Below, piece after piece: positions 6,405-58,140 of a stretch of 64,000 nt of DNA. Origin of the DNA: a virus (lineage: Duplodnaviria; Caudoviricetes); the IMG/VR virus record IMGVR_UViG_3300033069_001852. One strand, given 5' to 3'. Position numbers and translations under genes: made by a program. Positions within the stretch are counted from its first letter, which is position 1. Each line of letters begins with the position of its first letter. The notes under the pieces were generated by a model. It saw only the letters and a list, made by a program, of their open reading frames with translations. It was not told where the DNA came from and did no database searches.

Positions 6405-7256
6405 ATGAAGACAACCAAAAAACAATTTCACCGCTTGCTTCAAGAAGTCGTAACGGAAGTTATTAGCGAAACCAAACCTTTATTAAATGAAGCCCTTTCT
6501 GCCGTTGTCGCCAAACGGCCGCAGGAAAGTATCGCAGAAGCCCCCCAAAAAAATCTTCCTGGTTCGGAGCCAGACAAGTGGAAAGCTATTTCCGGAGCCA
6601 ATCCATCAAAGCCTGTGAGTAATGACATCCAACAATTTGCTAAAGAATTATTGGAGAAAATTACAGACCGGCAGAGGAAAAAAGGATTTGATGATATGAA
6701 TCTCGGGAACGCTATTCTTGATATGATTAAATTTAAAATGAGCAAGGAGGGTTGGTCAAAAGGCCAATCAGACACCGACGCTCTTCAAGCCAGACGGAAT
6801 GCCGGCGATCCACGGGAAAGCATATCGGAGGGTATGGATGGAGAGAAAGAAGAAAGAATTAGGGCCGAGATGCGAAAATTGCTAAGCCACACTTTTCAGG
6901 AACCATTACTCTCCAAAGCTATAGACGATGCTATCCAGGCTATAAAGGACTCATTGGGCAAAACGAACGAACCATATAAATCTTCAAGTAATTCGGATAT
7001 TATGAAAATGAAGAAGGGATTGGGGTTTGATGTTAAAGATGTACGTGAAGATAGACGAAAAGAGGCTAATGATAAGTTGGAATTTGAAAAATGGCTAAAA
7101 CAGTTTAATCCTGGATTGACTCCGGATAATATTGCTTATGATATTGCGTTTGAGGCTTGGAAGGCGGGAAAAGCAGTTGGTTACAAATCAATTCAAATCA
7201 ATCCCAACTGGATAAAAGAATCCTCCACCGATTTAAATAATTATCAGAAAAAATGA
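6405..7256 (+). CDS. Hypothetical charged protein, possible internal head protein
   Basis: 283 aa; N-terminus MKTTKKQFHRLLQEVVTEVISE; several (L/I/V)-x-E sites; ATATTTAT at 6379-6386. Confidence 0.7.
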   Translation: MKTTKKQFHRLLQEVVTEVISETKPLLNEALSAVVAKRPQESIAEAPQKNLPGSEPDKWKAISGANPSKPVSNDIQQFAKELLEKITDRQRKKGFDDMNLGNAILDMIKFKMSKEGWSKGQSDTDALQARRNAGDPRESISEGMDGEKEERIRAEMRKLLSHTFQEPLLSKAIDDAIQAIKDSLGKTNEPYKSSSNSDIMKMKKGLGFDVKDVREDRRKEANDKLEFEKWLKQFNPGLTPDNIAYDIAFEAWKAGKAVGYKSIQINPNWIKESSTDLNNYQKK

Positions 7257-7876
7257 TTCAACTCACCAACATTTTAAAAGAAGTCTACTTTAATGGCTTT
7301 ACCGTCTCTGAAGCAGCGTCAGAGTTTAGTCGGCCTGAGAATTTCTATAAATACGCAGAAGGTAAGGGTTGGACAGCTTGGCGAGGCGGTAATAACAATG
7401 AAAATGGTTCCACCGCTGCGGCCATCGTTTTTGAGGGTGAGAACAAGAGTCGGATGTGGTTTAAAATCAAATATCCTGATAAACTATCTGAGTTTGTAGG
7501 GAGTTCGGTGTCAGAGAACCAACACGACTATAAGCGCGTTTATCGAGCGGGCAAACGAATTACTAATAAATGGATAAAAGAGGCTTATCGGATTAGAAAA
7601 ACCCCACGTAATTACTCTCCGGACGGGAAACCGATAAAACGCGGATGGCAGGAATGCTTTCAAATGGCTCTGGAGGCGGAGGGATTAAAACCCTATGTGG
7701 AGTCGACCGGCGTCGATTATACCAAATGGCACTCTATGAAAAAAACTTCGGATACTAATTCGGAGGAGAATGACCAAGACACCGATGAAACCGAAGCGAA
7801 TTTTCATAACAAATATGACGCCGAACCGAGCCAGCGGTCTGGATTGTCTTATACCCATTTACCGGATGATAGATGA
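7253..7876 (+). CDS. Hypothetical protein with leader MIQLTNILKE; paralog of 7873-8370
   Basis: ATGA overlap with the upstream gene; shares RxWxxIK...W.ECF..AL.....PY with the next ORF. Confidence 0.75.
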   Translation: MIQLTNILKEVYFNGFTVSEAASEFSRPENFYKYAEGKGWTAWRGGNNNENGSTAAAIVFEGENKSRMWFKIKYPDKLSEFVGSSVSENQHDYKRVYRAGKRITNKWIKEAYRIRKTPRNYSPDGKPIKRGWQECFQMALEAEGLKPYVESTGVDYTKWHSMKKTSDTNSEENDQDTDETEANFHNKYDAEPSQRSGLSYTHLPDDR

Positions 7877-8370
7877 TGATAAAGCTTAAACCATTATTGA
7901 ACGAGTTGTGGTCTCCCGGCGCCTTAACCAACGGCGACGACGAATTGCGTTCTTATCCTTCCGAAACCGTGACTAAACAGGGGGCCCCCGAATGGTTCAT
8001 GGCGCATGGGACTAATGATTGGCACAATAAAAAAGCATATTGCTCCGCATATATCACCGAGACCGGCGGTAAACCAATGCGCATTTGGGTGGAGATTAAA
8101 ACTCGTGGTCTACGCAAACCCAATGATACGCATAGTTCTCATCACGAACGTGTCCGTAAAGCCATTGCGAAAGTATCCCGGGCCTGGTCCGGTGAAGCTA
8201 AGCGTTTAAAAAAGGAAGTCCGCCTTTCAGAAATTGGCAATCGAAGTTATCCCACCTGGAAAGAATGTTTCGTTCAAGCCTTGAAGAGTCAAAAAGTTGC
8301 GCCCTACATCACCGCACAGGGCACGGACGAGGCTGCGATGGATCCCGTCAATTTTACTCCCCGGAGTTAA
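7873..8370 (+). CDS. Hypothetical protein with leader MIKLKPLLNE; paralog of 7253-7876
   Basis: ATGA overlap; RIWVEIK...WKECFVQAL...APY. Confidence 0.75.
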   Translation: MMIKLKPLLNELWSPGALTNGDDELRSYPSETVTKQGAPEWFMAHGTNDWHNKKAYCSAYITETGGKPMRIWVEIKTRGLRKPNDTHSSHHERVRKAIAKVSRAWSGEAKRLKKEVRLSEIGNRSYPTWKECFVQALKSQKVAPYITAQGTDEAAMDPVNFTPRS

Positions 8371-14546: not shown

Positions 14547-15083
14547 TTAAAGTTTAAAATAAGAATATTCCTCCACAATTGGAGAGTAATAGAGGGTATC
14601 AATTTTCACAGAAATCCGCTGGGGAGTTAGATTAAAAACAAATTTCCCCTTCTGGACATAGGCCAAGGTCAAGTGGGGATGATAGACAGGATATTCATCG
14701 TGGTTAGGAAATTTTGAAAATTGTTCGTGTAAACGGGTTAATTGAGGGGCTCGAACATCAAATTTTACCACATCATAATCGGGATTATTATCAAACAGAC
14801 TCAATTGGATCAAATCGATGTTGAAGGGTTTGACGCCTTTCAACACACTCCGGATTTGGAGTTCATTCAGGTCGGGTTGAAATCCATATTTAACCGTGAC
14901 ATGCGGCTCTTTTTCCCGCCCAAACTCACTTCCTTTCACATATAAAATGGAATCGGAGATAATCCGCTGGTTAAAATTTATAAGCTTTTGCGCGGAAGTT
15001 CCGGTTACCCGAGCCATAAGGCAACCATAGGAGTTGGAGGGACCCGCAGCTTCCGTCAATAATTGGCGATAGGAGATGTTCAT
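14547..15083 (-). CDS. 2H phosphoesterase (T4 gp57B/Acb1-like, or RNA 2',3'-cyclic phosphodiesterase)
   Basis: Two HxT motifs, PHVTVKYG and NHDEYPVYHPHLTLAY. Leader MNISYRQLLTE. Confidence 0.85.
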   Translation of the reverse strand: MNISYRQLLTEAAGPSNSYGCLMARVTGTSAQKLINFNQRIISDSILYVKGSEFGREKEPHVTVKYGFQPDLNELQIRSVLKGVKPFNIDLIQLSLFDNNPDYDVVKFDVRAPQLTRLHEQFSKFPNHDEYPVYHPHLTLAYVQKGKFVFNLTPQRISVKIDTLYYSPIVEEYSYFKL

Positions 15084-15271
15084 GGGGTAAATGTTCTTTC
15101 GGCTAAATGTTTCAATCTATCTTCCATCTTAGAAGAAACCAGCAAACAATCCGCGTCCGTCCACATTTCATACGGATTATCGTGGATATTTCCAAAAATA
15201 TGTTCAAGCGGAAGAATTTTAAATCCCTTTTTCGCCAAGGCCATGGAAATGTTTTTAGTTCGCTGTGCCAT
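15080..15271 (-). CDS. Small ORF or remnant resembling the C-terminus of the 40683-44366 paralog family
   Basis: KGFKILPLE...EMWTDADCLLV compared with NGFKLVTIE...EVWTDSPALLI. Fills the gap in the operon and overlaps both neighbours. Confidence 0.5.
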   Translation of the reverse strand: MAQRTKNISMALAKKGFKILPLEHIFGNIHDNPYEMWTDADCLLVSSKMEDRLKHLAERTFTP

Positions 15272-16703
15272 TTTCCAATTCCTTTCGTATTACCGCTAGA
15301 GCTTCCTCACGGCTGACGCCCGGATTCTCATACCACATATCAGTGACCTTACCCAATAGTTCAGTAAATCTTGGTCCAGGTTTAATACCCAGTGCGATCA
15401 AGTCATGCCCATTAATTGGCAGTTGGGGTTTTTTCTTAATCAAGTTCATATCCAAGGTGGCCAAACGAGCCTTGATCAATTTTATTTGATTGGGCATAGC
15501 CGACGCATCCGCATGCGCAGTATTATCCGCGTGGATCAGATCCAAAGTATCCTCCAACTGCTCACCCATATCTACCCGGAATTTTCGTAAAGCTTTATCG
15601 CTGATATCCGCAGAGTCGCCGGCACCCTTTAGGCGCATATGATTTTCCACGCCCTTACATACGGCGTCAATCAATTCCGTGGGATATTTCAACCGGGTCA
15701 TTACGATCCGGGTTATTTTGGCGCCTTCGTCTTCATGCCGATAAAAATGAACACCCGTTGGTGTCACTGAGCGGGTCACGGTTTTACCTATGTCGTGAAA
15801 TAAAGCCATTAAGCGTTGAATTAATACCGGGTTCGTCTTGCTCAAAACTTCAAGGGTGTGGTCAAAGACATCGTGTTTATGATGAATGTTCTGGGTCATT
15901 TTGATGGCCGGGATCAATTCAGGAATTGTATACGGCAACAAACCAACTATCCTCAACAATTTAATGGCTCGGTGGGGCGACCCCGTCTGGAGCATTTTAT
16001 TCAGTTCATCCTTAATGCGTTCTTTGGAAATGATTTCCATCCGCGGCGCATTTTTCTTGATGGCCCGGATCATAAACATCGGCAAATCCCAATTATACTT
16101 TATGGTAAATCGAATGGCCCTTAGCATGCGCAACGGATCGTCGCTAAAAATCTGATCAGGCTGGATTGCGGTTTTGACAATTCCCCGCTTGATGTCTTCA
16201 ACCCCATGCCCCGTCAGATCCAAAATTTCACTGGTGGTTAAATCTTTCAATAAAGAATTGGTGGTAAAATCACGCCGTTCGGCATCGTCCCGCATAGTGC
16301 CATGCGAAACGGTCGGATTGCGACTATTGGGATCATCATAAGTTTCTTTGCGGGGCATGACAGCTTCAATATCCAAGTCGGATAAATCCTGACCGTTATG
16401 TTTCACCCCACGCAGATTAAATTTAGCCGTGCCATATTTGCTCGCAATGACAGGATTACTGCCCTGTTTATAGGCCCCAACTTTTTTGGTGATCCAATCG
16501 GAAAATTCCACTCCGCCATTGGGTTTGTTGACGACCAGGTCCAAATCTTTAGCATCCACTCCCATTAATTCATCTCGTACTGCGCCACCGGCTAGATACA
16601 CACGACCTTCCCACTCTGTTCCTTTTATTGTTTTAGATAAAAAATCTAATGCTGCCTTTTCTACTAACCCCTCATTTATCAAATTTTTAAGATTGACATC
16701 CAT
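15255..16703 (-). CDS. cca: Class II CCA tRNA nucleotidyltransferase with HD domain
   Basis: GGAVRD..DLD, RRDFTTNSL, DDPLRMLRAIRF, SKERIKDEL, HD motif LFHDIGK and tail INGHDL..GIKPGP. Leader MDVNLKNLINE. Confidence 0.93.
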   Translation of the reverse strand: MDVNLKNLINEGLVEKAALDFLSKTIKGTEWEGRVYLAGGAVRDELMGVDAKDLDLVVNKPNGGVEFSDWITKKVGAYKQGSNPVIASKYGTAKFNLRGVKHNGQDLSDLDIEAVMPRKETYDDPNSRNPTVSHGTMRDDAERRDFTTNSLLKDLTTSEILDLTGHGVEDIKRGIVKTAIQPDQIFSDDPLRMLRAIRFTIKYNWDLPMFMIRAIKKNAPRMEIISKERIKDELNKMLQTGSPHRAIKLLRIVGLLPYTIPELIPAIKMTQNIHHKHDVFDHTLEVLSKTNPVLIQRLMALFHDIGKTVTRSVTPTGVHFYRHEDEGAKITRIVMTRLKYPTELIDAVCKGVENHMRLKGAGDSADISDKALRKFRVDMGEQLEDTLDLIHADNTAHADASAMPNQIKLIKARLATLDMNLIKKKPQLPINGHDLIALGIKPGPRFTELLGKVTDMWYENPGVSREEALAVIRKELENGTAN

Positions 16704-17451
16704 AAGACAATTCTTCTTTCTTGGTGTGGTCAGGCCCTAATAAAAAATTATAATTCCACCCCTTTTCTTTACAAAATTCAATAGCGACTGTTGCCTTCTT
16801 TATATCCACCGATTTTATCCAACCTTTTATCTCTTCAATTGTATTTCCATTTACAAAAAAATCTGGTACATAATATGTTTTCAATCCATTCTCACTAATA
16901 TACGGAATTCTTATTTTATGTTTCTTTGTCCAAGATATTCTGTTTTCATCATACCACTTCATTCTTTTTAATTCATACGAACTATCATACCACTCTTGTT
17001 CACCATTATCTTTTACATAAAATCCAGTTTTCCAATTATTCTTAATGGTGTATTTTCCTTCTGATAGTCGTTTCGTATATGTATTCGTTCTTTTTTCTAT
17101 TCCTTCTGGAGTTTTCCAGTGATTGGATAATAACATCCGATTTCGAATAGCCTCTCTTCTCACTGGATTATTACATGCTGTTTTTTGTTTTTCTTTTATT
17201 TCTGGACAATTCATCGGGTTGTTTATAGATAACCACTCTCTAAACTTTTTTCGTTTTGATGGATTTTTATCACCCAGAAATTTAGCGGCGACTTCCGGTT
17301 TTTTCATCGGATTAGCACATGAACGACATCTTTTTTGTTTTTTTCTTGATGAATAGTAATTGGACTTTGTTGAGTATGGCATGTCTGTTCCACATGATGG
17401 ACATTCTTTTATCCAATATACCTTACCATTTATTATTTGTGTATTAATCAT
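16687..17451 (-). CDS. Free-standing homing-endonuclease-like protein (Zn finger plus PD-(D/E)xK domain)
   Basis: CPSC and CRSC pairs, NPMK/NPSK/NPMN repeats, SSYE...YVPDF...EIKGW. Visibly more AT-rich than its flanks. Confidence 0.75.
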   Translation of the reverse strand: MINTQIINGKVYWIKECPSCGTDMPYSTKSNYYSSRKKQKRCRSCANPMKKPEVAAKFLGDKNPSKRKKFREWLSINNPMNCPEIKEKQKTACNNPVRREAIRNRMLLSNHWKTPEGIEKRTNTYTKRLSEGKYTIKNNWKTGFYVKDNGEQEWYDSSYELKRMKWYDENRISWTKKHKIRIPYISENGLKTYYVPDFFVNGNTIEEIKGWIKSVDIKKATVAIEFCKEKGWNYNFLLGPDHTKKEELSYGCQS

Positions 17452-18467
17452 AAACCGCCCTTTAAAAATTCCTGCGTTTTAGTAATCAATTCCGTTTCAG
17501 GAACCGCATCTAATTGGTCGCCATAAATAGACTGCCAAAAGGCTTTAATTTTACCAATCATCGGGCCGGGCTTTACTTCCGGAAAATTGCGCATTAACCA
17601 TTCGCCGCCGTATTTGGATTTAATCACCGTTTTGTTGTTAATCTTTTCAATTTCCGATTGTAATTTTTGATAATAATGGGGGAATTCTTGTTTTAGGAAA
17701 TAATCCTCATCTTCAATTTTTCTGGTCTTGTTCAAGGCTACTAATCCGTTTCTAATCGCTATTGCCGTTGGGCGACCAGGTCGGCTGCGTTTACGATCTC
17801 CGTGGTTCATTCCACTATCCGCCACTTGCCGACTATCAAACAAATCGCTGGCGGCAATAAAATCAACAATGTCTTGAACGGTTTGAATTTGATCAAACGT
17901 ATTTAGAACTTGCTTATAACCAAGAATGACAAGGCCCTCTCGCAAATTCCTGGTTAATAAGATTTCATTATTTCTATCACTTTTATCTTTGTAAATCTTA
18001 AAAAAGCCTTGGTTACCGTATTTGTAATTTAATTTTCGAGAGATAATACCAAGGATACCACTGAAGTCGTTGTATGATAGATAATCATAATTTGCCGCAA
18101 ACTCATCTTCGGACGACATAATAAAATCGACATGAACCGTTTTGTTCACGGTGGGGTTCTTGTAAAGCACACTATGAATATTTCCATTTTTACTATAATC
18201 AATCATGTATGAACCCAAGAATTGTTTTAACGTATTGTAAACATGTTGATTGCCACATGCGACAATATCAATATCGCCGTGATCGGCTTTGGTGGGTAAG
18301 GCCCGGCTCAATTGGAACTTTGAAAATTTATCCCCCAGCCGTTTCTGTAAATCTCCAAAAATGATATTCATGTCCGCAGTCGTCACCCGTTCGGCTCGGG
18401 GGCCGAACAATTTCCCACCTTCTTTAAGCGCGGGAATGCTTTCCACTATAGCTTTCAACTTAATCAT
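17448..18467 (-). CDS. Pol-beta-superfamily nucleotidyltransferase with CCA-like C-terminal tail
   Basis: HGDIDI and VHVDFI catalytic-type aspartates; tail KYGGEWLM..VKPGPMIG. Start moved to the ATG at 18467 (MIKLKAIVES), which gives an ATGA overlap. Confidence 0.7.
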   Translation of the reverse strand: MIKLKAIVESIPALKEGGKLFGPRAERVTTADMNIIFGDLQKRLGDKFSKFQLSRALPTKADHGDIDIVACGNQHVYNTLKQFLGSYMIDYSKNGNIHSVLYKNPTVNKTVHVDFIMSSEDEFAANYDYLSYNDFSGILGIISRKLNYKYGNQGFFKIYKDKSDRNNEILLTRNLREGLVILGYKQVLNTFDQIQTVQDIVDFIAASDLFDSRQVADSGMNHGDRKRSRPGRPTAIAIRNGLVALNKTRKIEDEDYFLKQEFPHYYQKLQSEIEKINNKTVIKSKYGGEWLMRNFPEVKPGPMIGKIKAFWQSIYGDQLDAVPETELITKTQEFLKGGL

Positions 18468-19420
18468 ACTAGTTTTAAATATTTTCCGTAATCCCACGGT
18501 TGTTTGTGATACCGTTTCATAAAACTGTGAGCCGTCAAACTAAAATTCATTCCGGCTAGTTTGTCTTTATAAGATTCATACCATTTATGACCAATCTCAA
18601 ATCCCACGGAAATCTGACTATATTTACCTAAATTTTCCTTTTGGCCAGAATGGATATCATCCACGCTTTTCATCATTGCCGTCCGGACCGTTTGGGGTTT
18701 TATTTTCAAGCCTTTTCTCAAATAACCCTTGGCCTCTGTTTTGCTAAGCCCACCATCCTCCTCCAAGTCTGAAAATAAATACTTTTTTAACTTGTTAAAC
18801 ACAGACATTTCCCGCTCGGTGGGCTGGCCGAAATCTTTTGAATATAATTTAAACCAAAAAAATAGAACGCCGGCTTCTGTTACTTCATAAGTTTTGTTGG
18901 GTTGGATGCGCTTATGTGAGTCGTCGATTATTTCAATTACTACCGCTGATTCGGACAGAATTTCAACATCTTCCCGCTTTGCTTTTTTTCCATCATTTTT
19001 CCAATACAATTCCGCTAAAAAAGGATCAATTTCCCACTCTAAGCGTTCCGGTCTTTCCTTGGCTATGCGCCTAATTTCTTCAAAATTAGGATTGTCGCGG
19101 TCGAATTTTTCGTGGAACTCATCGATTAAAGTAGAATTAGCTACATGGATTTTACCCCGGGGCTTAACGACATATAGAATGCCTTTGTCAACAAAGCGGC
19201 TCCGGGGAATAACCGATGAGTAGACGCAGTTTAAACGACTGGGTTTATCGGAAAAATGCTTCCGCCGATAAAATTCCAAACCAATTTCTGAAGGAATGTT
19301 TTCCAACCAGTGTTTTCCATCCTCACTACGTTTGGATTTGATCAAATCTCCAACGGTCATCGGATAATTAGAACGATGGTAGAGCGTTACATTTTCACTG
19401 ATTTCCGTTAGGATTTTCAT
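18464..19420 (-). CDS. DUF2441-like putative ADP-ribosyltransferase-fold protein
   Basis: LYH...VGDLI, EFYRRKHFSDKPSRLNCVY, LYVVKP, YW...EDVEIL. Leader MKILTEISE. Confidence 0.55.
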   Translation of the reverse strand: MKILTEISENVTLYHRSNYPMTVGDLIKSKRSEDGKHWLENIPSEIGLEFYRRKHFSDKPSRLNCVYSSVIPRSRFVDKGILYVVKPRGKIHVANSTLIDEFHEKFDRDNPNFEEIRRIAKERPERLEWEIDPFLAELYWKNDGKKAKREDVEILSESAVVIEIIDDSHKRIQPNKTYEVTEAGVLFFWFKLYSKDFGQPTEREMSVFNKLKKYLFSDLEEDGGLSKTEAKGYLRKGLKIKPQTVRTAMMKSVDDIHSGQKENLGKYSQISVGFEIGHKWYESYKDKLAGMNFSLTAHSFMKRYHKQPWDYGKYLKLV

Positions 19421-20489: not shown

Positions 20490-20538
20490 ATAAATATAGG
20501 TCGGTTATCTGCGATTACACCCAACATTGTATATTTAT
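20490..20538. promoter_or_regulatory. Divergent pair of ATATTTAT putative late-promoter motifs
   Basis: 20490-20497 (-) heads the lysozyme-to-2H operon and 20531-20538 (+) heads the neck operon. Representative of 16 exact copies at gene starts. Confidence 0.65.
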
Positions 20539-22260: not shown

Positions 22261-22275
22261 TAGAAGGAACATAAT

Positions 22276-40633: not shown

Positions 40634-40682
40634 ATGCGCATCCAATCCGCGGGAGTTATATTTATTCTCATACTCTAGTCTT

Positions 40683-44366: not shown

Positions 44367-44385
44367 TATTTGTATATTTATGTCT

Positions 44386-45108: not shown

Positions 45109-45122
45109 TATTTATACATTAC

Positions 45123-45434: not shown

Positions 45435-45435
45435 T

Positions 45436-46359
45436 ATGAATACAATTGGTATCCTCCCCGGGCGTTTTCAACCGCCGCATCGGGGGCACTTGGAAGCTTA
45501 CAAACACGCCGTTCAGATCGTGGGTAAGAACAACGCATATGTTGCGACTTCTGACAAAATCGATCCGATTAAATCACCTTTGAATTTCAGAGAGAAGCAA
45601 CAGATTTGGACGCGGCATGGGGTGCCAATTGATAAAGTTGTAAAGGTTACCAATCCCTATAAGTCGGAAGAAATCACGCATAAATTCAATCCCAAACAAA
45701 CGGCGGCAATTTTCTTTCTTTCCCAGAAAGACGCCGCTAGGATTCCATTTAAAAACGCCGCGGGGCAACCCTCATATTTTCAACCCTATAAAGGTAATGA
45801 AGATAAACTTCAACCTATTTCCGAACACGGTTATATCGCCGTAACTCCGACTTTTAAAATTGACGGTAAAAACATCTCCGGAACGGTAGTGCGTGAAGGC
45901 CTGGGATCGGCTAAATACAGCGAATCGCAAAAACGCAAACTCTTCCAATGGATCTTTGGTTGGTTTGATATGGCTCTGTTTGAATTGTTGGTGGATAAAT
46001 TCACCGCCGCGGAACAGGATAAAAACAAACCCGTCACTCCGATTAATGAGGTCCACCAAAGATTGAAAGAATATCTGAAGGGAATCATCCGAGAATTAAC
46101 CTTTTCTGTGCCTAGTGTTGAGCCCGATGTTTCCGCCGATCCTAAAAAACCCACAACCATAACCGACCCCACGGCCGAAAAAGATCCAGATCAGGAACGA
46201 AAAGATCGGGAAATGTCACGGCGAAAATTGGAATTGATAAAAAAGAAACGTCAATTCCAAGATAGTCAAAAGAACTGGCGCACAAAGGGGGTTGAACAGG
46301 ACAAACGCGATATCCGGGCCACCGATGCGGAAATCGCTGATTTGCGCTCCCAGATATAA
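45436..46359 (+). CDS. HxGH (cytidylyltransferase-like) nucleotidyltransferase
   Basis: PGRFQPPHRGH, SPLNF, ISGTVVR. Start moved to the ATG at 45436. Confidence 0.8.
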   Translation: MNTIGILPGRFQPPHRGHLEAYKHAVQIVGKNNAYVATSDKIDPIKSPLNFREKQQIWTRHGVPIDKVVKVTNPYKSEEITHKFNPKQTAAIFFLSQKDAARIPFKNAAGQPSYFQPYKGNEDKLQPISEHGYIAVTPTFKIDGKNISGTVVREGLGSAKYSESQKRKLFQWIFGWFDMALFELLVDKFTAAEQDKNKPVTPINEVHQRLKEYLKGIIRELTFSVPSVEPDVSADPKKPTTITDPTAEKDPDQERKDREMSRRKLELIKKKRQFQDSQKNWRTKGVEQDKRDIRATDAEIADLRSQI

Positions 46360-46417
46360 TATTCCAAAAATATTGGGCCGGGCCTACTTATAGGAAAGGT
46401 TAACAATCCAATATTTT

Positions 46418-47251
46418 ATGAGCGAAGGCAAAATCCCCCTACGCCGAACTTCAGGTCCAACTGATCCGGCCCAAGCTAAAGAACAACCACGGTACCCGAC
46501 CGATACCATTTCCCTTCCCACTAAGGGCTGGTTTTATCCCGAAAATACCCCCCTGGCCACGGGCGAGGTAGAGATCAAGCAAATGACTGCGCGGGAAGAG
46601 GATATCCTTGCCAATCAGGATTTAATCCGCCGTGGTAAAGTTCTAGATAAACTACTCCAATCACTATTGATTGATAAGAATATAAATCCTGAGGACATTT
46701 TAATTCCCGATAAGAATGCCATCTTTATTGCTATTCGCCGCTTTGCTTATGGCGACAACTATTCCGTCAATGTCACTTGCCCCCAATGTGGCGTGAAATC
46801 CCGGGTTGATATCAATTTGGCCGAATTAAAGGATAAAGAAATTGATCTTTCTCTTTTACCACGTTGGAAGAATAATTTTACATTTGTGCTTCCAAAAGCG
46901 GGAACGGTATTGACATACAAACTATTAAATCAGAAGGATGAGGACGATATTGAGCGAGAAATCACTGCATTACGTAAAGTGAATAAGGAAGCTTCCAGTG
47001 AAGTCACCACCCGCTTGAAATACGTTATCACCGCGATTGATGGTAATCCGGACAAAGATCGGATTAGAAAATTTGTGGATGAAGAATTTTTAGCCGTGGA
47101 TGCTCGGGCGTTCAGAAATTCTATGAAGGCTAACACCCCGGACATTGACATGCAATTTGATTTCAAATGTTCCAATTCCAGATGCGAACACGAAAGGAGG
47201 ATGGATATCCCTGTGGGAGCCTCCTTTCTATGGATTGACATTGAGTCCTGA
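46418..47251 (+). CDS. Baseplate hub/tail assembly chaperone (T4 gp26-like)
   Basis: LPTKG..YP, MTAREEDIL, CPQC and C...C; immediately upstream of the tape measure. Confidence 0.75.
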   Translation: MSEGKIPLRRTSGPTDPAQAKEQPRYPTDTISLPTKGWFYPENTPLATGEVEIKQMTAREEDILANQDLIRRGKVLDKLLQSLLIDKNINPEDILIPDKNAIFIAIRRFAYGDNYSVNVTCPQCGVKSRVDINLAELKDKEIDLSLLPRWKNNFTFVLPKAGTVLTYKLLNQKDEDDIEREITALRKVNKEASSEVTTRLKYVITAIDGNPDKDRIRKFVDEEFLAVDARAFRNSMKANTPDIDMQFDFKCSNSRCEHERRMDIPVGASFLWIDIES

Positions 47252-47502: not shown

Positions 47503-49764
47503 ATGGCAACACTAGACCCTAAATCATTAGAGGCCGCTAAAGATCACGCTAAAGAAATTGAAAAACTTCTTGGCTCCAGCGCCGAAAGCGTGGATGTCCT
47601 AAATGAGAATTTCAACCTCACCGTTGAATTGTTGAAAAAAATGCGGGACACGCTCGGCGACTCCGATGAGGAGTTAATTAAATTCGGAAATAATATCCTT
47701 TCCAATCTCACCAAGGAAACCACGATTGAAGGCAAAATTTTAGCCACGAAACAAGCCCAGTCAGATATTTTACGTCAGATGGTAAAATCAGGAATAAGTT
47801 TAGTGGACAGCGGCGGCGAATTGTCAATTCAAGGAAAATTTCTTTCTTCCATCATGCAGCAGGCGGCTAAGGCGCAAGCGGAACAAAGTTCTAATTTTAT
47901 CCGCCAGGTATTTTTCAGTGAACGCTTTAATCGGAATTATGCGCAAGCCTTCGGGATCGCAAAAAAACTTCCCAGTCATATGACTGCCGCCGGCAATGCG
48001 ATGGCAAAATTACCCATCATCGGCAGTATTACATCCAAGGTTCTGACCGGTCTTGGCTCTAAACTAGCGCTTATGGGAGTTCCGGTCATCGGTTGGATAA
48101 CCACCGCGATTCTTTTAGCGGTTGATCTTGGTAAGGAGATTCTTGAAGTTTTTAAACAAGCCGACGAAGCGGGGACTAAATTCCGGATGACGGTGGGTTT
48201 TATTCGAAAAAATACCGTGGCAATTGACGAAGACGCTCGTAGGATCGCCATTGATTTCGCAACGGTCGGAGCCACTTTTGATCTGGCCTATAATAGCGTA
48301 ACGGCCATTATGACGACGATGGGATCGTTGGTTGGTTATTCTAAAGGCTTGGTGGAAACCGGAACTATTTTTGCCGCCCAACTTGGAGTTTCCGCGGAAA
48401 AGAGCATGGTCACCCTGAAAGCGTTTGCGCAAATTTCCCGCTCCACTATGGCCGCCCAGCGCAATATGTTGGGGTTTGTCGCACGCTTATCACAAGCCGG
48501 CGGCACCAATTTAAATGAAGTGATGAGCGACATCGCAGAATTTTCCCAATCCAATTACCGTTTCATGAAGGGCACCACATCAGAATTGATCAAAGCGACG
48601 GTGGAAGCCCGTCGGATGGGAACTTCTCTGGCCAGCGTCGGTAAATCTGCCAATTCATTATTAAATTTCACCCAAAGCATCAATGACGAAATGGAAGCCA
48701 GTGTTTTATTGGGTCGGTCAATTGATCTTCAGAGGGCTAGGAGCCTATCCTATGCCGGCGACCTGGCGGGCCTAAACAAGGAAATTTTACGCCTTGCTCA
48801 GGCTGCGGATTTCGAAAACATGGATCCGTTTCAAATGCAGGCCTTTGCTAAAGCCGTCGGCCTGGCCGAATCAGAAATCAGCAAAATGTTGGTCGCTTCC
48901 CGCGACCAAGAAGAACAAAATCGTTTGCTAGCTAAAGACCCCTCCTTGAAAGCTCGGGTGGAAGAATATCGTAAAATATTAGCCGCGTCAGAGAAGACCA
49001 CGAAAAATCTTGGTCAACAATACCTCCTAGACCTCCAACGGGAAGCGAATCAAACTCGCATGTTAGCCATCCAACAACAATGGACGGCGTTAACCCAAAA
49101 AATTGCGGAAGAATGGTTGCCGGTGATTGACACAATGTTGAAAGCTATCGTCCCCGTTATCAATGTTATCTCCAAGGCTATCCAGATCGCGATGAAACCA
49201 ATAACTGATCTGGCTAAGATCTATAGTGGAATTTCTAAATTGATGAATACCCAGAATCCGGAGGACTATTCGAAGGGGTGGGAATTAGCGGCCGATGGGG
49301 TAAAACACCATTTACTAGGTTCAATGACGGGCGTTTATGATTTTATCGCTAATCTGTTTAAAGCAAATTCCCCACACCGTTTGGGGCAGATGTATGTAGA
49401 TGGTTTTACCAAAGCAGCACCCTTGGTGGAAAAATCACTTACTACTTCGATGACCCGAGCCGCAGCAAGTACCGCGGATATTTTGAGTGGTATGGGATTG
49501 GAGCCGGTCGGAGATAATGCCCCGCCAGGTATGGGTACAATTGCCCCCATCGCGCAACGACCGAAAAGTGTTCAGGACTTTTCCAATATGGCTACGGATA
49601 GCACAATCATGAAAGTTGTGGATTCCATTAATCGTTTGCGAGAAGATATGCTTAGTGGTAAATTGGGAGCCAATGTTCGACTCGATAGTCAAATCTTAGC
49701 GGAGTCTACCAAACGGGCTACTGATTTTAGAGGTGGTTATGGCACAAACAACGCTCGCGCTTAA
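47503..49764 (+). CDS. Tape measure protein
   Basis: 753 aa, Ala-rich and helical; INDEMEASVLLGRSIDLQRAR; lies between the chaperone and baseplate genes. Confidence 0.75.
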   Translation: MATLDPKSLEAAKDHAKEIEKLLGSSAESVDVLNENFNLTVELLKKMRDTLGDSDEELIKFGNNILSNLTKETTIEGKILATKQAQSDILRQMVKSGISLVDSGGELSIQGKFLSSIMQQAAKAQAEQSSNFIRQVFFSERFNRNYAQAFGIAKKLPSHMTAAGNAMAKLPIIGSITSKVLTGLGSKLALMGVPVIGWITTAILLAVDLGKEILEVFKQADEAGTKFRMTVGFIRKNTVAIDEDARRIAIDFATVGATFDLAYNSVTAIMTTMGSLVGYSKGLVETGTIFAAQLGVSAEKSMVTLKAFAQISRSTMAAQRNMLGFVARLSQAGGTNLNEVMSDIAEFSQSNYRFMKGTTSELIKATVEARRMGTSLASVGKSANSLLNFTQSINDEMEASVLLGRSIDLQRARSLSYAGDLAGLNKEILRLAQAADFENMDPFQMQAFAKAVGLAESEISKMLVASRDQEEQNRLLAKDPSLKARVEEYRKILAASEKTTKNLGQQYLLDLQREANQTRMLAIQQQWTALTQKIAEEWLPVIDTMLKAIVPVINVISKAIQIAMKPITDLAKIYSGISKLMNTQNPEDYSKGWELAADGVKHHLLGSMTGVYDFIANLFKANSPHRLGQMYVDGFTKAAPLVEKSLTTSMTRAAASTADILSGMGLEPVGDNAPPGMGTIAPIAQRPKSVQDFSNMATDSTIMKVVDSINRLREDMLSGKLGANVRLDSQILAESTKRATDFRGGYGTNNARA

Positions 49765-49767
49765 TTT

Positions 49768-51693
49768 ATGGCAAATACAACAAGCAATGGAACAGGAAAC
49801 AGTTTAATTGGCGCACCAACTCTTGTGCGTATTCCGCCAAATTATCCCGTCGAACCAATGCCGGGTAAAGTGGAACAATTGTTGGAATATAATCAGTCTG
49901 CGTTGTATCACTACCCTTCTCCATTCACCAGTAATACTAACCTATTGCGCTTCGGTCGGGAACAACCTTATATCTATCGGTATATTGATAACCCGAATAA
50001 ATCTTCCCTACCGCCGATCCCCGCTAAGTATAAGAATATTGAGTCAATTATTCCCCTCCGGGCCGGCGCCGATGACATCATGCGCATGTCATATTACTTG
50101 TTTGGTGGACGCGGCGTCCAGTTTATAACTACACAATTTTTACTCCAGGCTCAGCAGCCGTTCGATGAGACTGCGGTTTATAATCCAGCGGAGGTTTTGA
50201 GCGCGACCGCAAGTCCGCTGTCCCTGGGGATCATTCCCATGCCCCAACGCCACATCAACATCAGTAGTGGAGTTTTGGGGGCCTTAGCTAGTATCATCGG
50301 TATAAACATTAGCAATGGCAATACCGCACCCCCAAGTTCCGTTGGTCAGGACGCCTTACCGAAGATTGGCGCCGCCGATGGTAAAGGTTTGTTACGCGCT
50401 GCCACTGCGAATAAAGCTGTCGGCATTCTCCATGTCAAATTCCCCGCGGGTGGCGAACCCAGCCCGAAATCAGGAATCTGGAGCACAATTGGGAAAAGTA
50501 TTCTAACCACCGCCGCGGATAGCATAAAAGTATTTCTTAAACCAATATTTCCTTTGCGGCAGAAGGGAGTAAAATACCGGGGTGATGAAATTGCCTATGG
50601 TCTAATGCGTAGTGATGCCGCCGGGCGTTTTACATCTTACAATAAAGATGAAGTAGCCATATCCATCTTTGACATTCGCCGTGAGGGGGTAAAGGTTTTA
50701 AACAACAATCGCGTTTATCGAGCACTGAATGGTGACAAGGTTTTATCCCAATATAATCAAAAAACTCCACTTGTATCGGAATATGATAATTCAACCTCCA
50801 AGGTTCCGGTCGTGGATACTTCCATCATCGGCAATCGTAATCTCCGCATGGTGCGAGCAGGCGCCGGCGATGGTCTCAATCAAATCGGCGTCCTCACAAA
50901 AGGTTCAGCGAATTCTGACGGCGTCCCTATTAAAAACGTGCCTATGAATTATGTCGGATGGGAAACCTGGCGCCCCTACCAAGACGACCTCATCGCTTTC
51001 TTTTTCTATGATGTGATTAATGAGAAATACATACCATTCCGAGCAACCGTAAAAGGGATCAATGATACAACGGCGGCGCACTGGGATGAACTTCGATTTA
51101 TCGGCCGGGCCGACCAGGTCTATACTTACAATGGATTTGTTCGTTCGCTCGCTTTCCAGTTTAGCGTGGTGGTGACCAGTCTTGAAGATTTGTTACCCAC
51201 CTGGCAAAAGATAAATTATATGAAGACCTCATTGAAGCCCGCGGGTTATACTCTGAGTGGCACGCGCCAGTACAATCGCTTTATGATTCCGCCCATGTTT
51301 ATGCTTACCGTGGGGGATATGTATAAATACCAACCAATCGTCATAACTAATCTAACCATAAACATTCCGGAAAATGCGAACTGGGAGACCTTAAACGAAA
51401 ACAATTCCACAACTTGGGAATACCTCCACGATAGTATCCACGCGGATAGCAGTTTCGTGGGAAAATACGCGCAGTTGCCGAAAGAAGTTGATATCTCAGT
51501 GACATGTAACTTGCTCGAAAAAGATCGGGCTGAAGTCGCGAGTGTAGATTTCGGCCATGCGCCGAAAGACGAGGCGGGAAATTTCATCATCGGCGATTCA
51601 ACCAAACCTTACCTCCCCGCGCCAAATAAATTTTCCAAAACAATAAATCCCGCATATGAAGGGGATGTCAATCCACAACCCACCATGGCATGA
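49768..51693 (+). CDS. Baseplate/tube-initiator-like protein
   Basis: C-terminal FRA..IND...W....IGRA..YTY.GF.RS..F.F and PP...LTVGD; follows the tape measure. Confidence 0.55.
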   Translation: MANTTSNGTGNSLIGAPTLVRIPPNYPVEPMPGKVEQLLEYNQSALYHYPSPFTSNTNLLRFGREQPYIYRYIDNPNKSSLPPIPAKYKNIESIIPLRAGADDIMRMSYYLFGGRGVQFITTQFLLQAQQPFDETAVYNPAEVLSATASPLSLGIIPMPQRHINISSGVLGALASIIGINISNGNTAPPSSVGQDALPKIGAADGKGLLRAATANKAVGILHVKFPAGGEPSPKSGIWSTIGKSILTTAADSIKVFLKPIFPLRQKGVKYRGDEIAYGLMRSDAAGRFTSYNKDEVAISIFDIRREGVKVLNNNRVYRALNGDKVLSQYNQKTPLVSEYDNSTSKVPVVDTSIIGNRNLRMVRAGAGDGLNQIGVLTKGSANSDGVPIKNVPMNYVGWETWRPYQDDLIAFFFYDVINEKYIPFRATVKGINDTTAAHWDELRFIGRADQVYTYNGFVRSLAFQFSVVVTSLEDLLPTWQKINYMKTSLKPAGYTLSGTRQYNRFMIPPMFMLTVGDMYKYQPIVITNLTINIPENANWETLNENNSTTWEYLHDSIHADSSFVGKYAQLPKEVDISVTCNLLEKDRAEVASVDFGHAPKDEAGNFIIGDSTKPYLPAPNKFSKTINPAYEGDVNPQPTMA

Positions 51694-54693: not shown

Positions 54694-54722
54694 TTGATCC
54701 AACCAATCTGTCGTGGTATGGT
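54694..54722 (+). promoter_or_regulatory. Sigma70-like promoter for the polymerase gene
   Basis: TTGATC-17 nt-TATGGT with an extended TG; the ATG at 54731 follows 8 nt later. Confidence 0.45.
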
Positions 54723-54730
54723 ACCGCGAT

Positions 54731-56110
54731 ATGATTGAAAATAAAGAAAGTTATGAAGATTTCTACAAAGAAATTGAAAATCACGATCTTATTTTACACA
54801 TTGTCCCAGCCGAACCCCATTTTCACGCTGCCGTTTGTCAACCAATTGCTGCGTTTGTGTATGATGTTCAGACTAAGCGGAGTTATTCCATTTCTTTTAA
54901 TCACCCGGATATAGACTTCAAATTACCGGCGCAAGAATTTGCGCAGCGGATTGTAAAGCAAAATAACCGCATATGGGCGATGGATAAGAAGAGTCTGATT
55001 CAGACCCTTCCAGTCGATGGAATATATGATATTAACCTTGTCCGATTTCTTAAAAATAACTCTACATTTGACTATCAGACGGAAACTCCGGCCCATAACC
55101 TCCTTGAGCGATTTTATCCTGATCGGAGGAATTTAAACCGAATTATACCTTTGGTTAAACATAAGGAGATATTTGACGGAATGGTGGCAAGTTGTGTGGA
55201 AATGATCAAAACGGCGGAAATTGATCCAGCCTACAATAAAGTCAACACGATTATTCTTGAAACCCTAGCCGAATTGGAGCAAAATGGCATTTGTATAGAT
55301 AAGCCTCTGTTTGATAAATGTTTCGGGGTGCGGACTCACCCAGCCGGCGAACTAAACGTAGTGTATAGTCAATATAATCCATACACGTCAACCGGCCGCC
55401 CAAGTAATCGTTTCGATGGTGTCAATTACGCGGCTTTGAAAAAAGATGACGGCTGCCGGCGATGTTTTGTTTCACGGCACAATGTTGGCGTGACGAAACG
55501 AATGGCCGGAAAAATGTTGCTGATTGATTATTCCGCATTTCACCCCCGCATTATTTCCTATCTGATTGGGTTTAAATTGCCCGTGACGATGGATATTTAT
55601 CAATATCTGGGTGAGTTATACTTTAACAAAAAGATCCTCAATGCCTACGATATTGATGAAGCTAAAAAACTCACCTTCCGTCAACTCTACGGCGGCGTCG
55701 AGAAACAATACGAACACATAAAGTATTTTAACCGGCTTAAAGGTTTTGTCGACACCCATTGGAATTTTTTCTGTGCTCACGGTTTCGTTGAAACTCCCAT
55801 TTTTCAAAGGCGAATTACCACCGAACACATTAAAGACCCCAATCCCAATAAGCTGTTTAACTATATCCTTCAGGCAACGGAGACGGAGATTGCGATTCCG
55901 GTCATCTTTCAACTTAACCATTTTCTGAGAAAACGTCAGTCGAAGGCTATTTTATACACCTACGATTCGGTTTTGTTTGATTTTTGCCGGGATGATGAAA
56001 AGGACACTCTTCAAGGAATTGTTGAGATTATGTGTAAAAATAATCATTTTCCTATTAAGATGTATGTGGGGAATGATTACGCGAACCTTAATCAAATTCC
56101 TATTTCTTAA
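54731..56110 (+). CDS. polA: Family A DNA polymerase-like protein (compact, divergent)
   Basis: TSTGRPS, motif A DYSAFHPRI, motif B KKLTFRQLYG, YILQATE, motif C YTYDS. Confidence 0.8.
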   Translation: MIENKESYEDFYKEIENHDLILHIVPAEPHFHAAVCQPIAAFVYDVQTKRSYSISFNHPDIDFKLPAQEFAQRIVKQNNRIWAMDKKSLIQTLPVDGIYDINLVRFLKNNSTFDYQTETPAHNLLERFYPDRRNLNRIIPLVKHKEIFDGMVASCVEMIKTAEIDPAYNKVNTIILETLAELEQNGICIDKPLFDKCFGVRTHPAGELNVVYSQYNPYTSTGRPSNRFDGVNYAALKKDDGCRRCFVSRHNVGVTKRMAGKMLLIDYSAFHPRIISYLIGFKLPVTMDIYQYLGELYFNKKILNAYDIDEAKKLTFRQLYGGVEKQYEHIKYFNRLKGFVDTHWNFFCAHGFVETPIFQRRITTEHIKDPNPNKLFNYILQATETEIAIPVIFQLNHFLRKRQSKAILYTYDSVLFDFCRDDEKDTLQGIVEIMCKNNHFPIKMYVGNDYANLNQIPIS

Positions 56111-56143
56111 CCCAAGTCCTCCATATTTATACTTATCTATGGT

Positions 56144-57760
56144 ATGATAATGGAGAAGTTTCTAAAAGATGTTATTCTGGAAGTATCAATGCGCTTGCCT
56201 TGTGGGGGCGCATTTCTTGATTTTCACGATGACAACCATTTGGTCCTGATCGAAGCGGCCTTACAACAACGGGGGCTTTCGTCAGAACAATCTAATGCTG
56301 TCCTTCAACAATTAGCGGAGAAGGATAATCAAAAAAACAACCTGACCCACAGCGACATTTCCACATTAAAAATGTTGGGGCTGCGCTTAAAATCCGAATC
56401 GGAGTATCAGTCATTAAAGCTGAATGAAGTGGATGTGGAATCGGTAACTTTTACCACGGGCGGCGCGCACCGGATTTTTGAAGAGGCAACGGTAAAATTT
56501 AAAAAACTTTACGCCTATATCCGTTCTCAATCGACGGTGTATATCACGGTGGCCGGTTCGATCAACAAGATGCGTTCCGCAGACAACATCCGAATTTGTC
56601 AGTGGGGGCCTTCCCGGGGTCCTGGTTCAGCGAACTATAACCAAATCGTCGCGGTTTTCAGTTTGATCAAACAATTTCCCGCCATATTACAGGTGAGCAC
56701 AAATTTACCCCAGGGTATTAATTATGAGATGCAAAAAGTGGAGGAGTTAAACGACATTTTACAAAAATCAGCCACCCCTTCTCACTTGTATATCTACAAA
56801 GATAAAAAAATTGTTCCGATGCATGTTATGGCGCGCAGTGCGGCTAAAGTTACTGGCGTCGGCAAAGCCGACATCGCATTGGAGAATGAACGAAAAGAGG
56901 AAGTATTTTGGATCTCTTATAAAAACGGAGACTATTTTGGTAAACAAGGCCAAGTGTTGTTATCCGTCCCTTTTCAACAATACGGTTCGTTACAAGGTTT
57001 GTATGATAGCGGTTTTACCGACCGACCGCTTGCGAGTGATAAGGATGTTCCAGGAAAAGAAATCCAACGGCTTATCAACATTTTTATCAAAGCGATGATG
57101 GTCAAGGCAGGTTTAAACAAATATACGATTAAAAATGCGGTACGCATTGATGCTAAAAAGAAAGATGTCCTCATTTATGTGGAGGGGAATAAGCTTGTAA
57201 CTATTGGACCCAACCATCCAATGTATGATCTTGTGGGTGACCCGGTCATTTTGAAAAAGATGGCAAAGAATGTAAGAAAAGAAGGCAAGTTGAATTTACA
57301 TTTTTTCCTTCAAGGAACCCCGGAATTTTATTTTGATATGATGAAAGATTCGGAGATAATGGATCGTGAAACCCTGAACACCATCTCAGGGAAATCAATC
57401 TATGGCACAGATTTTTTTGTTGGTAATAACCGTTTCGGCCGTGAAAACATAAATATGCTTTTACAAACGAGTCGGAAATTGATTATCCAATCCCATAATG
57501 CCGCGGGGGAGTCGGATGGTTTAGTGTTAAGAACAGACGAACAGGGGCACATTCTTATGAATCCAAACCTACCCTCAGCGATCACGGATGAATTGGAACA
57601 GGTTATTGATGTGTATCTGCCTGTTCTTTTTACCCGTTTTACTCGCAACGAAGGCTTTAAATGGACGGATGAAACTGGAAAAAATATGATTTTCGGCGGC
57701 CGCTTTCTTATCCTCCCCAAGGGAAAGATGCCATCGAAGGCAATTGAGGTAAATTTATGA
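56144..57760 (+). CDS. Hypothetical protein, possible PD-(D/E)xK nuclease domain
   Basis: KADIAL...WISYK...FQQYG. N-terminal region resembles that of 58142-59029. ATATTTAT at 56123-56130. Confidence 0.55.
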   Translation: MIMEKFLKDVILEVSMRLPCGGAFLDFHDDNHLVLIEAALQQRGLSSEQSNAVLQQLAEKDNQKNNLTHSDISTLKMLGLRLKSESEYQSLKLNEVDVESVTFTTGGAHRIFEEATVKFKKLYAYIRSQSTVYITVAGSINKMRSADNIRICQWGPSRGPGSANYNQIVAVFSLIKQFPAILQVSTNLPQGINYEMQKVEELNDILQKSATPSHLYIYKDKKIVPMHVMARSAAKVTGVGKADIALENERKEEVFWISYKNGDYFGKQGQVLLSVPFQQYGSLQGLYDSGFTDRPLASDKDVPGKEIQRLINIFIKAMMVKAGLNKYTIKNAVRIDAKKKDVLIYVEGNKLVTIGPNHPMYDLVGDPVILKKMAKNVRKEGKLNLHFFLQGTPEFYFDMMKDSEIMDRETLNTISGKSIYGTDFFVGNNRFGRENINMLLQTSRKLIIQSHNAAGESDGLVLRTDEQGHILMNPNLPSAITDELEQVIDVYLPVLFTRFTRNEGFKWTDETGKNMIFGGRFLILPKGKMPSKAIEVNL

Positions 57761-58140
57761 AAAAAACCATTACACTAACGCAACTGAAGAAGTTGATCAA
57801 AGAATGTATAACTCAGGTAATTAAGGAAAAATCTCAAGATGAAATTCCACGCTGGGCGGGAGGAATTATCTCTCAAGTACAAACCATATTTTCTATTGGC
57901 GGCCGGCAAGATATTGAGTATGTGTATAGGCCCGAAAATCAATATTTAGGTTTTTACAATCTCATAGGATCGGATGTTCGTTTAATTCATTTGCGGCCGG
58001 TGTATAGAATAGATGATAGCAAATTTACAATTCCCCCAGGAACTATTTTTGACTTGTATATGGTCACCGCGCATGGAGATATAAATAAAGAAGACGTTAA
58101 ATGGAATGAGGTCCTGAAACTTTTCAGAGGTCATAAGTAA
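57757..58140 (+). CDS. Hypothetical protein with leader-like N-terminus
   Basis: MKKTITLTQLKKLIKECITQVIKE; ATGA overlap. Confidence 0.7.
   Translation: MKKTITLTQLKKLIKECITQVIKEKSQDEIPRWAGGIISQVQTIFSIGGRQDIEYVYRPENQYLGFYNLIGSDVRLIHLRPVYRIDDSKFTIPPGTIFDLYMVTAHGDINKEDVKWNEVLKLFRGHK

Follow-up and report, generated by a model that had tools for sequence, protein, structure and literature searches.

A recurrent N-terminal leader on diverse proteins of an uncultured T4-like phage: a candidate capsid-targeting system for an injected enzyme cargo

The DNA analysed here is a 64 kb window (the whole stretch under study) of the IMG/VR virus record IMGVR_UViG_3300033069_001852 (Duplodnaviria; Caudoviricetes), in which a group of genes starts with closely similar leader peptides of the type MIKLKxLLxE. 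An earlier note on this sequence had reported the leader on about 18 unrelated proteins and proposed that it directs them into the capsid. PHROG and Pfam scans of the window, of which 51 genes entered the tests described below, revealed a 1092-aa tail sheath (29516-32794), a tail tube (40076-40567), a neck adaptor, baseplate hub and wedge proteins, an exonuclease, several homing endonucleases, a gp32-type single-stranded DNA-binding protein (SSB; 59545-60411) and UvsX (60444-61640), a gene content that points to a distant T4-like myovirus. The nearest cultured phage is Microcystis phage Mel-JY01, with a sheath identity of 42%, and a megablast search with 20 kb of the window against the phage collection gave no nucleotide-level match. 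Many relatives are present in IMG/VR, including a 250.8 kb contig with a CheckV completeness of 74% (G001) and a complete genome of 368.8 kb with terminal repeats (G006), which has structural and replication genes in common with the window (57% identity for the sheath, 71% for the tube). As contigs bearing close orthologues of the CCA-adding enzyme of the window measure 220-365 kb, we concluded that the window is part of a giant phage genome.

All N-termini quoted in the earlier note were recovered from the sequence at their positions, and two leader classes can be distinguished, a short one of 9-11 residues in 13 genes and a longer one with stacked [LIV]-x-E sites at 6405, 35293, 45123, 56144 and 57757 (Table 1). 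Two rules were applied to the N-termini: a loose rule, set beforehand from T4, which asks for [L/I]-x-E with the Glu at residue 8-12, and a strict rule, which asks for hydrophobic residues at P7, P4 and P3 and for Glu at P1. The loose rule was satisfied by 13/51 window genes, whereas internal 12-mers taken from these proteins predicted 2.2 (binomial p = 1.5e-7), and the strict rule by 8/51 genes, compared with 0.11 expected (p = 3e-13). Among internal Met-starting windows the corresponding counts were 13/327 and 0/327, among spurious ATG open reading frames (ORFs) 4/170 and 1/170, showing that the motif is enriched at true N-termini only. Sheath, tube, neck, fibre-like, baseplate, SSB, UvsX and exonuclease genes of the window were found to lack the tag, as does the endonuclease 16687-17451 located within the tagged enzyme operon, in line with the absence claimed in the earlier note.

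Other details of that description had to be revised. While the sharing of the leader stands, the count of 18 unrelated proteins does not, as four of them are paralogues and the proteins at 7253 and 7876 form a further pair, which leaves approximately 12-13 distinct tagged families. The peptide MNLNE (19417-19956), listed as a short leader, was dropped, its orthologue beginning seven residues further in and being untagged. The long form at 45123 proved to begin a separate 103-aa ORF, and the cytidylyltransferase-like gene from 45436 is untagged. Pfam bore out the domain labels 2H, CCA, lysozyme and kinase; the labels 'NTase' and 'hydrolase' are weakly based.

Table 1. Tagged genes, neighbouring features and upstream ATATTTAT boxes of the window
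Feature	Position	Strand	Remarks
ATATTTAT box	6379-6386	+	18 nt upstream of 6405; operon 6405-8370
Long-form leader protein, 283 aa, ...RLLQE VVTE VISE ...PLLNE, stacked [LIV]-x-E	6405-7256	+	no family match
Tagged protein, 207 aa, MIQLTNILKE; paralogue of 7876-8370	7253-7876	+	no Pfam/PHROG match
Tagged protein, 164 aa, MIKLKPLLNE	7876-8370	+	G001 orthologue begins MKLKTLILLNE
Tagged 2H phosphoesterase, 178 aa, MNISYRQLLTE	14547-15083	-	Pfam 2_5_RNA_ligase2 38.2 bits
Tagged CCA-adding enzyme (predicted) with HD domain, 482 aa, MDVNLKNLINE	15255-16703	-	Pfam
Tagged protein, 339 aa, MIKLKAIVE; possible nucleotidyltransferase	17448-18467	-	start ATG 18467
Protein, 318 aa, weak shortened leader MKILTEISE	18464-19420	-	loose rule only
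Tagged phage lysozyme, 176 aa, MISLKKILEE; first gene of minus-strand enzyme operon	19953-20483	-	Pfam Phage_lysozyme
ATATTTAT box	20490-20497	-	6 nt upstream of lysozyme start; operon 20483 to 14547
ATATTTAT box	33727-33734	+	5 nt upstream of 33740
Tagged protein, 206 aa, MKLAKLLME	33740-34360	+	L040 orthologue begins MIKLKSILTE
Long-form leader protein, 292 aa, MNKSNLKEFVKRTLE	35293-36171	+	zinc-ribbon matches near threshold
ATATTTAT box	40658-40665	+	17 nt upstream of four-paralogue array
Four tandem tagged paralogues	40683-41693, 41693-42568, 42565-43542, 43539-44366	+	directly behind tube gene
ATATTTAT box	44374-44381	+	4 nt upstream of kinase start
Tagged P-loop kinase, 240 aa, MVKLAELVMNE	44386-45108	+	Pfam AAA_33 32.5 bits
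Long-form leader ORF, 103 aa, MNFAQLKTMIKAILNE	45123-45434	+	translation
Cytidylyltransferase-like gene, untagged, GxFxPxHxGH motif at start	45436-46359	+	downstream of 45123 ORF
ATATTTAT box	56123-56130	+	13 nt upstream of 56144
Protein, 538 aa, 13-residue leader MIMEKFLKDVILE	56144-57760	+	ATATTTAT 13 nt upstream
Long-form leader protein, 127 aa, ...LKKLIKE CITQVIKE	57757-58140	+	stacked sites

The anatomy of the short tag was derived from a pooled set of 54 leaders from the window and eight related contigs, picked by the pattern [LIVMF]xx[LIVMF][LIVM]xE, which fixes the P1 Glu by selection. These leaders converge on M-I-K-L-K-x-[L/I]-[L/I]-x-E. The Glu falls exactly at residue 10 in 34 of the 54, and the 13 window genes have it at residue 9-11. 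Position 4 (P7) is L, F or I in all 54 sequences, as imposed by the pattern, with L in 46 of them, position 7 (P4) is L or I in 51/54, and position 8 (P3) is L, I or V throughout, which again follows from the selecting pattern; downstream of the Glu, the 54 sequences exhibit no conservation. In an AlphaFold2 model of 43539-44366 (predicted local distance difference test, pLDDT, of 91.6 overall and 47 for residues 1-10) the tag is predicted to form a short helix set apart from the globular part of the protein, whose start lies near residue 20. Comparison of the CCA enzyme with homologues of solved structure gave a consistent picture, in that the alignment to solved tRNA nucleotidyltransferases starts past the leader, at residue 13.

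The tagged genes also share an upstream element. The box ATATTTAT occurs in 23 copies in the window, 13 of them within 60 nt upstream of a same-strand start (0.5 expected), and heads fibre-like, neck, sheath, tube and tape-measure-like operons together with every tagged operon (6405, 20483, 33740, 40683, 44386 and 56144), while no copy was found upstream of the SSB, UvsX and exonuclease genes. It may represent a promoter-like box common to structural and tagged operons, and if it is a -10-like late promoter element, its location 4-6 nt from the ATG of three tagged genes would imply leaderless, or nearly leaderless, mRNAs. This proximity and the AT-rich codons of the consensus are what could be expected if the similarity arose at the nucleotide or translation level, from AT-rich starts and leaderless or poorly structured mRNAs, or from chance or a compositional bias of N-termini. 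However, all six Leu codons are in use at position 4 (TTA 7, CTA 7, CTC 5, CTT 4, TTG 4, CTG 3) and positions 7 and 8 each employ at least eight different codons, from which we concluded that selection acts on the peptide and not on the RNA or DNA. In addition, promoterless genes inside operons are tagged too, few spurious ORFs and internal Met windows fit the rules, and structural and replication genes are untagged. On the basis of codon usage the RNA- or translation-level explanation was rejected, as was chance on the basis of the control counts, and we assign this group of explanations a negligible probability.

The tag is also portable. The 54 pooled proteins belong to 30 BLAST families, and single enzymes have both tagged and untagged orthologues with the boundary exactly at the Glu. 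For example, the 2H enzyme begins with MIRLKQLLTE/VKYEYGCVMA in contig L002 (slashes mark the boundary) and with untagged MSENVKYEYGCVMA in L003 and L004, whereas a 5'-3' deoxyribonucleotidase carries no tag in the window (34757) but is tagged in L126 and L102. The degenerate window leaders MKLAKLLME and MVKLAELVMNE have orthologues with the canonical forms MIKLKSILTE and MIKLxDLLxE, respectively. Among 120 close orthologues of the CCA enzyme, 113 of which have a recognisable anchor, the tag is N-terminal in 73/113, and in 28/113 the same ...[LI]-x-E/G junction is found internally, after an extra N-terminal domain, an arrangement compatible with cleavage at the junction in addition to addressing. 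Several longer CCA orthologues (P0161, P0167-P0170, P0173, P0177 and P0188; 650-770 aa) contain added GNAT acetyltransferase domains (PF00583, PF13508) and extra N-terminal sequence and keep an internal M-x-E-I-K-Q-L-I-x-E/G junction immediately ahead of the CCA domain, which may reflect naturally fused polyproteins or translation starting at internal sites.

True paralogy does hold for the four tandem genes and for the pair 7253/7876, as would be expected if the shared N-terminus were a relic of common ancestry and all tagged genes had been duplicated from one. Such an origin is difficult to reconcile with the unrelated Pfam families involved (PolyA_pol + HD, 2H, lysozyme, AAA_33 and PARP), with the 30 BLAST clusters, and with orthologues that differ solely in the presence or absence of the tag. 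Common descent of all tagged genes was rejected on the domain assignments, and we consider it extremely improbable. The set of tagged genes differs between related phages: G006 has clear orthologues of the structural and replication genes of the window, but among the tagged window proteins only 7253-7876 found a match there, and a weak one (28% identity, E = 4e-7). The putative cargo set is hypervariable, similar to the internal-protein loci of T-even phages (PMC3012670).

An exact-pattern scan of IMG/VR for DNA encoding MIKLKxLLxE revealed at least 119 stretches and, among the matches listed, nearly all were located at ORF starts and many loci comprised 2-6 tagged genes. G001 contains 16 strict leader matches compared with 1.6 expected, most of which surround the head module at 65-112 kb, and G006 has 20 leader matches of its own compared with 2.8 expected. 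A relaxed MIKL-type pattern, with residues 5 and 6 free and broader codons at 7 and 8, detected three tagged genes in Mel-JY01 (60276, 60923 and 62733) and one in Flavobacterium phage immuto, and gave no match in P-SSM2, HTVC008M and LR756508. Two tag-rich IMG/VR loci had no megablast match among cultured phages. Taken together, the tag seems to define a very large uncultured clade. In the literature searched, we found no paper describing the tag, no 'MIKLK' in a phage context and no mention of Mel-JY01, and the 'capsid targeting sequence' papers among the matches listed dealt with T4, SPN3US, P1, P22 or engineering only.

The short tag is found on proteins of markedly different predicted function. 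The tagged lysozyme (Phage_lysozyme, 51.3 bits, domain from residue 57) has likewise tagged orthologues in G001, L006 and L115. The protein encoded at 15255-16703 exceeds the Pfam cut-offs for PolyA_pol, PolyA_pol_RNAbd, HD and tRNA_NucTran2_2 and has tRNA nucleotidyltransferases as its top PDB matches, which assigns it to the class II CCA-adding enzymes, with specificity for CCA rather than poly(A) presumed. The 2H protein passes the thresholds of 2_5_RNA_ligase2 (cut-off 27) and LigT_PEase (23.6 bits, cut-off 23.3) and is borderline for Acb1 (27.2 bits against a cut-off of 27). Orthologues of the kinase begin with MIKLxDLLxE/GVxDxGI. For the possible nucleotidyltransferase at 17448-18467, the single match was to a PHROG family labelled 'DNA polymerase' (1e-8), with nothing in Pfam or in the PDB sequence search. 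The protein encoded at 18464-19420 yielded weak Atlas leads only (DUF2441 and Arr) and exhibited no BLASTP similarity to a PARP-domain protein of G001, and the one at 33740-34360 yielded a weak isochorismatase/nicotinamidase lead only; PDB sequence searches with the latter and with the 2H protein gave no useful match.

Further genes are located among these operons. Four homing-endonuclease-like genes of HNH and GIY-YIG types are dispersed among structural and cargo genes (16687-17451, 28421-29446, 32876-33661 and 38341-39951), the first inside the tagged enzyme operon and the last between the tagged operon 34757-38384 and the tube gene. Within the latter operon, a 738-aa ORF (36168-38384) matches a PHROG lacking functional annotation over residues 1-225 and has a G001 orthologue (48336-50357) with approximately 430 aa conserved. 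Just past the baseplate genes, a 465-aa ORF (54713-56110) matches a PHROG DNA polymerase profile in its C-terminal part only (961-1219 of 1445), with a counterpart of 43% identity at the equivalent position of G006 (165586-166941).

The four tandem paralogues, with the leaders MSIIRLKPIVE, MLKLSNILTE, MIKLSYLLME and MIKLSQLLNE, had no match to any ADP-ribosyltransferase (ART) family in Pfam. In a 79-sequence alignment of their family, R52/R74, R99-S-x-S102 and E257 are invariant or nearly so, and most of the higher-ranked rows obtained by VIA-align for the paralogue model are ARTs, namely Arr (Z 6.1), diphtheria toxin (5.1), DarT, PARPs and Tpt1, all of them below Z 8, so that an ART fold of these proteins is suggestive only. 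The family comprises 3755 cluster representatives at E<=1e-3, and approximately two thirds of the best 149 members begin with a phi-phi-x-E peptide. The surrounding tube-to-hub interval differs in gene content between phages (window 40567-46418 compared with 151587-156374 in G006), holding the four paralogues, the kinase, a small leader protein and the cytidylyltransferase in the window, and looks like a hypervariable cargo slot between tube and baseplate hub.

A further link between the leader and the head came from relatives with a T4-type head module. A T4-type S77 (gp21-type) protease was detected in G001, in G002 and in 8/12 large tagged contigs. In G001, TerL and the gp20 portal are followed by proteins of 292 aa, 157 aa (with a long leader) and 336 aa (MIRLKNLIKIQE) and then by the S77 protease, with scaffold and Gp23 capsid protein further along, and the tagged proteins of the portal-to-protease interval occupy the place of the cleaved T4 core proteins gp67 and gp68. 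The protein adjoining TerL begins with MIRLKSLLQE and is a PARP-domain ART (28.6 bits, cut-off 26.7). The annotation of Mel-JY01 includes a prohead protease, and a T4-like capsid gene is present as well; in both phages the long-leader class flanks the protease. The maturation Glu65 of T4 gp23 (FLTE/A) aligns with QLIDE/V in G001 and QLISE/A in Mel-JY01, with I at P3, and because this cleavage Glu aligns in both, the protease of the clade very probably keeps the L/I-x-E specificity. Two further features were observed in these modules: the G001 portal gene (L017:6420-9539; G001 106420-109539, minus strand; 1039 aa) is interrupted by an intein (Intein_splicing, 52 bits) that includes an endonuclease of HNH_3/NUMOD3 type, and in the head module of Mel-JY01 a ribosomal protein S21 (RpsU) is annotated at 22183-22410, between protease and scaffold region.

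By their stacked sites, the small long-leader proteins look like degradable prohead-core components, and they flank the protease in G001 and Mel-JY01. This would also suit a propeptide that serves the prohead or its protease on proteins that are not injected, be they internal structural or scaffold-like parts or zymogens timed by the late protease in the producing cell, the lysozyme for instance acting as endolysin; indeed, the lysozyme could equally serve lysis, and late-type promoter boxes suit any late function. Nevertheless, the majority of the tagged proteins are enzymes that act in nucleic-acid metabolism, for which a structural role is implausible, RNA-repair enzymes would profit little from late activation in the producing cell, and in T4 all proteins that bear a capsid targeting sequence (CTS), foreign ones included, reach the head and are delivered (PMC9026906). 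We therefore regard a propeptide without injection as unlikely.

A short amphipathic N-terminal helix could have many partners, and the leader might accordingly be an address or regulatory peptide unrelated to the capsid, such as a signal for a membrane or replication compartment, a tag for a chaperone or AAA+ protease (degron), or a tag for a cytoplasmic multi-enzyme assembly. That the match to T4 is one of pattern and not of homology, and that an S77 protease went undetected in one complete tagged contig, would be compatible with such a role. On the other side, the spacing of exactly three residues from the L/I/V pair to the Glu is that of S77 specificity and of the maturation site of the clade's own capsid protein, the tag is present on head-module proteins between portal and protease, and the tagged genes cluster near structural genes under the same promoter box. 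Because two T4-like Kyanoviridae, P-SSM2 and HTVC008M, gave no match to the tag pattern, the tag does not seem to be a general signal of host machinery either, and we give a capsid-unrelated address a similarly low probability.

The enrichment at N-termini, the selection on the peptide, its portability and geometry, the head module and the promoter box together support the leader as a T4-style capsid-targeting propeptide, greatly expanded, for which we estimate a probability of roughly 0.7. The computational checks suggested in the earlier note, that for the protease made in relatives, and several further ones gave the outcome expected of capsid targeting. Most likely, the tagged proteins are packaged in the head and reach the host along with the phage DNA. 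In the mechanism we propose, the hydrophobic face of the short helix (residues 4, 7 and 8) would dock the protein on the scaffolding core of the assembling prohead, a T4-type S77 prohead protease would cut off the tag after the Glu of [L/I]-x-E, and the mature enzyme, free in the head, would exit with the DNA at infection. The cargo encoded in the window would then consist of the CCA-HD enzyme, the 2H enzyme, the P-loop kinase and the possible nucleotidyltransferase, which by their domain types look like an RNA/tRNA-end repair set, together with the lysozyme, the four paralogues of suggested ART fold and several uncharacterised proteins. From the same domain types, we infer a possible role of this cargo in host takeover or counter-defence.

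Several observations weigh against this interpretation. No S77 match was obtained for G007, a tagged contig that is complete (207 kb), and the protease that would act in the window phage is deduced from its relatives. Internal phi-phi-x-E sites in tagged proteins number 36 compared with 44.6 expected, a depletion that is not significant. The residue pattern that the leader shares with the T4 CTS is not accompanied by sequence homology, and relative to T4 the cargo is unusually large and numerous, with proteins of up to 482 aa carrying the short tag and up to 538 aa overall; T4 offers no direct precedent for a lysozyme or a CCA enzyme in the head. For the paralogues, the Z maximum of 6.1 is accompanied by the lack of any Foldseek match of the model to the PDB at E<=0.001. 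Core binding, cleavage, residence in the virion, injection and the role of the cargo are all steps that we infer.

Extending this interpretation, we tentatively propose, at slightly less than even odds, that a very large clade of uncultured T4-like giant phages pre-loads sets of enzymes by means of a 10-residue 'postcode', which in the window would comprise a kit for repairing tRNA 3' ends, an Acb1-like nuclease acting on defence signals, several ARTs and a lysozyme, whose counter-defence and takeover chemistry would start at DNA entry, before phage expression, and that this cargo is exchanged through gain and loss of the tag. Should the tag function the way the T4 signal does, sequence alone would suffice to read which proteins thousands of uncultured giant phages inject. 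Capsids would then deliver whole enzymatic toolkits for RNA repair and ADP-ribosylation, beyond small inhibitors, which would bear on how phages survive defences that precede phage expression, including tRNA nucleases, cyclic-nucleotide signalling and restriction. It would also account for hypervariable 'hypothetical' genes adjoining structural modules and provide a second, naturally diversified capsid-loading tag for engineered protein delivery by phage particles.

Among known systems, the closest parallel is the CTS of T4, whose internal proteins carry propeptides of 10-19 residues that are cleaved by gp21 after L/I-x-E; residues 1-10 of IPIII are enough for packaging, with residues 4 and 7 determining targeting and 8 and 10 processing (PMC9026906). 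Fusions of the CTS to GFP, beta-galactosidase and nucleases have been loaded into heads and subsequently delivered (PMC9026906, PMC9958956). Like the CTS of IPI, IPII and IPIII, the tag of the clade comprises approximately 10 residues, is located at the extreme N-terminus, is portable and ends in L/I-x-E, and its cargo genes likewise vary widely between related phages (PMC3012670). The T4 CTS has hydrophobic or aromatic residues at 4 and 7, [I/L] at 8 and Glu at 10 (IPII and IPIII both begin MKTYQEFIAE in the T4 record), and these functional positions are the ones conserved in the clade consensus, a match at the level of pattern only. T4, however, tags three small basic proteins, compared with about a dozen in the window, of which most are enzymes 160-480 aa long. 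At residue 9-10, a phi-phi-x-E ending also closes the T4 propeptides of gp24 (MAKINELLRE), gp22 (MLKEQLIAE) and gp21 (MNEPQLLIE), of which that of gp24, with I4, L7, L8 and E10, resembles the clade consensus, but these sit on structural and assembly proteins, whereas the clade tag sits on accessory enzymes. A precedent for a packaged ART is T4 Alt, which is injected and has an N-terminal propeptide cleaved by gp21; similarly, G001 tags a PARP-domain ART and the window tags four paralogues of suggested ART fold, although these candidates have no detectable sequence similarity to Alt.

In the giant phages phiKZ, 201phi2-1 and SPN3US, many inner proteins of the jumbo capsid are cut after Glu by a gp21-related protease (PMC9026906; see also PMC7411985 and PMC10052503). 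Their motif is S/A-x-E on long, dissimilar propeptides, and no short portable N-terminal tag is known to have been defined. Unlike the phiKZ-type phages, the clade described here has a T4-type Gp23 capsid protein and a gp20 portal. The T7 core protein gp16 with its transglycosylase domain, the N4 virion RNA polymerase and the P22 ejection proteins offer a precedent for the delivery of muralytic and nucleic-acid enzymes from the capsid, but are incorporated by dedicated protein-protein contacts and are not known to use a shared cleavable tag. Measured against the CTS principle of T4, the tag described here differs in its consensus, in a putative cargo that is far larger and enzymatic, and in being employed throughout a clade of giant phages that are uncultured.

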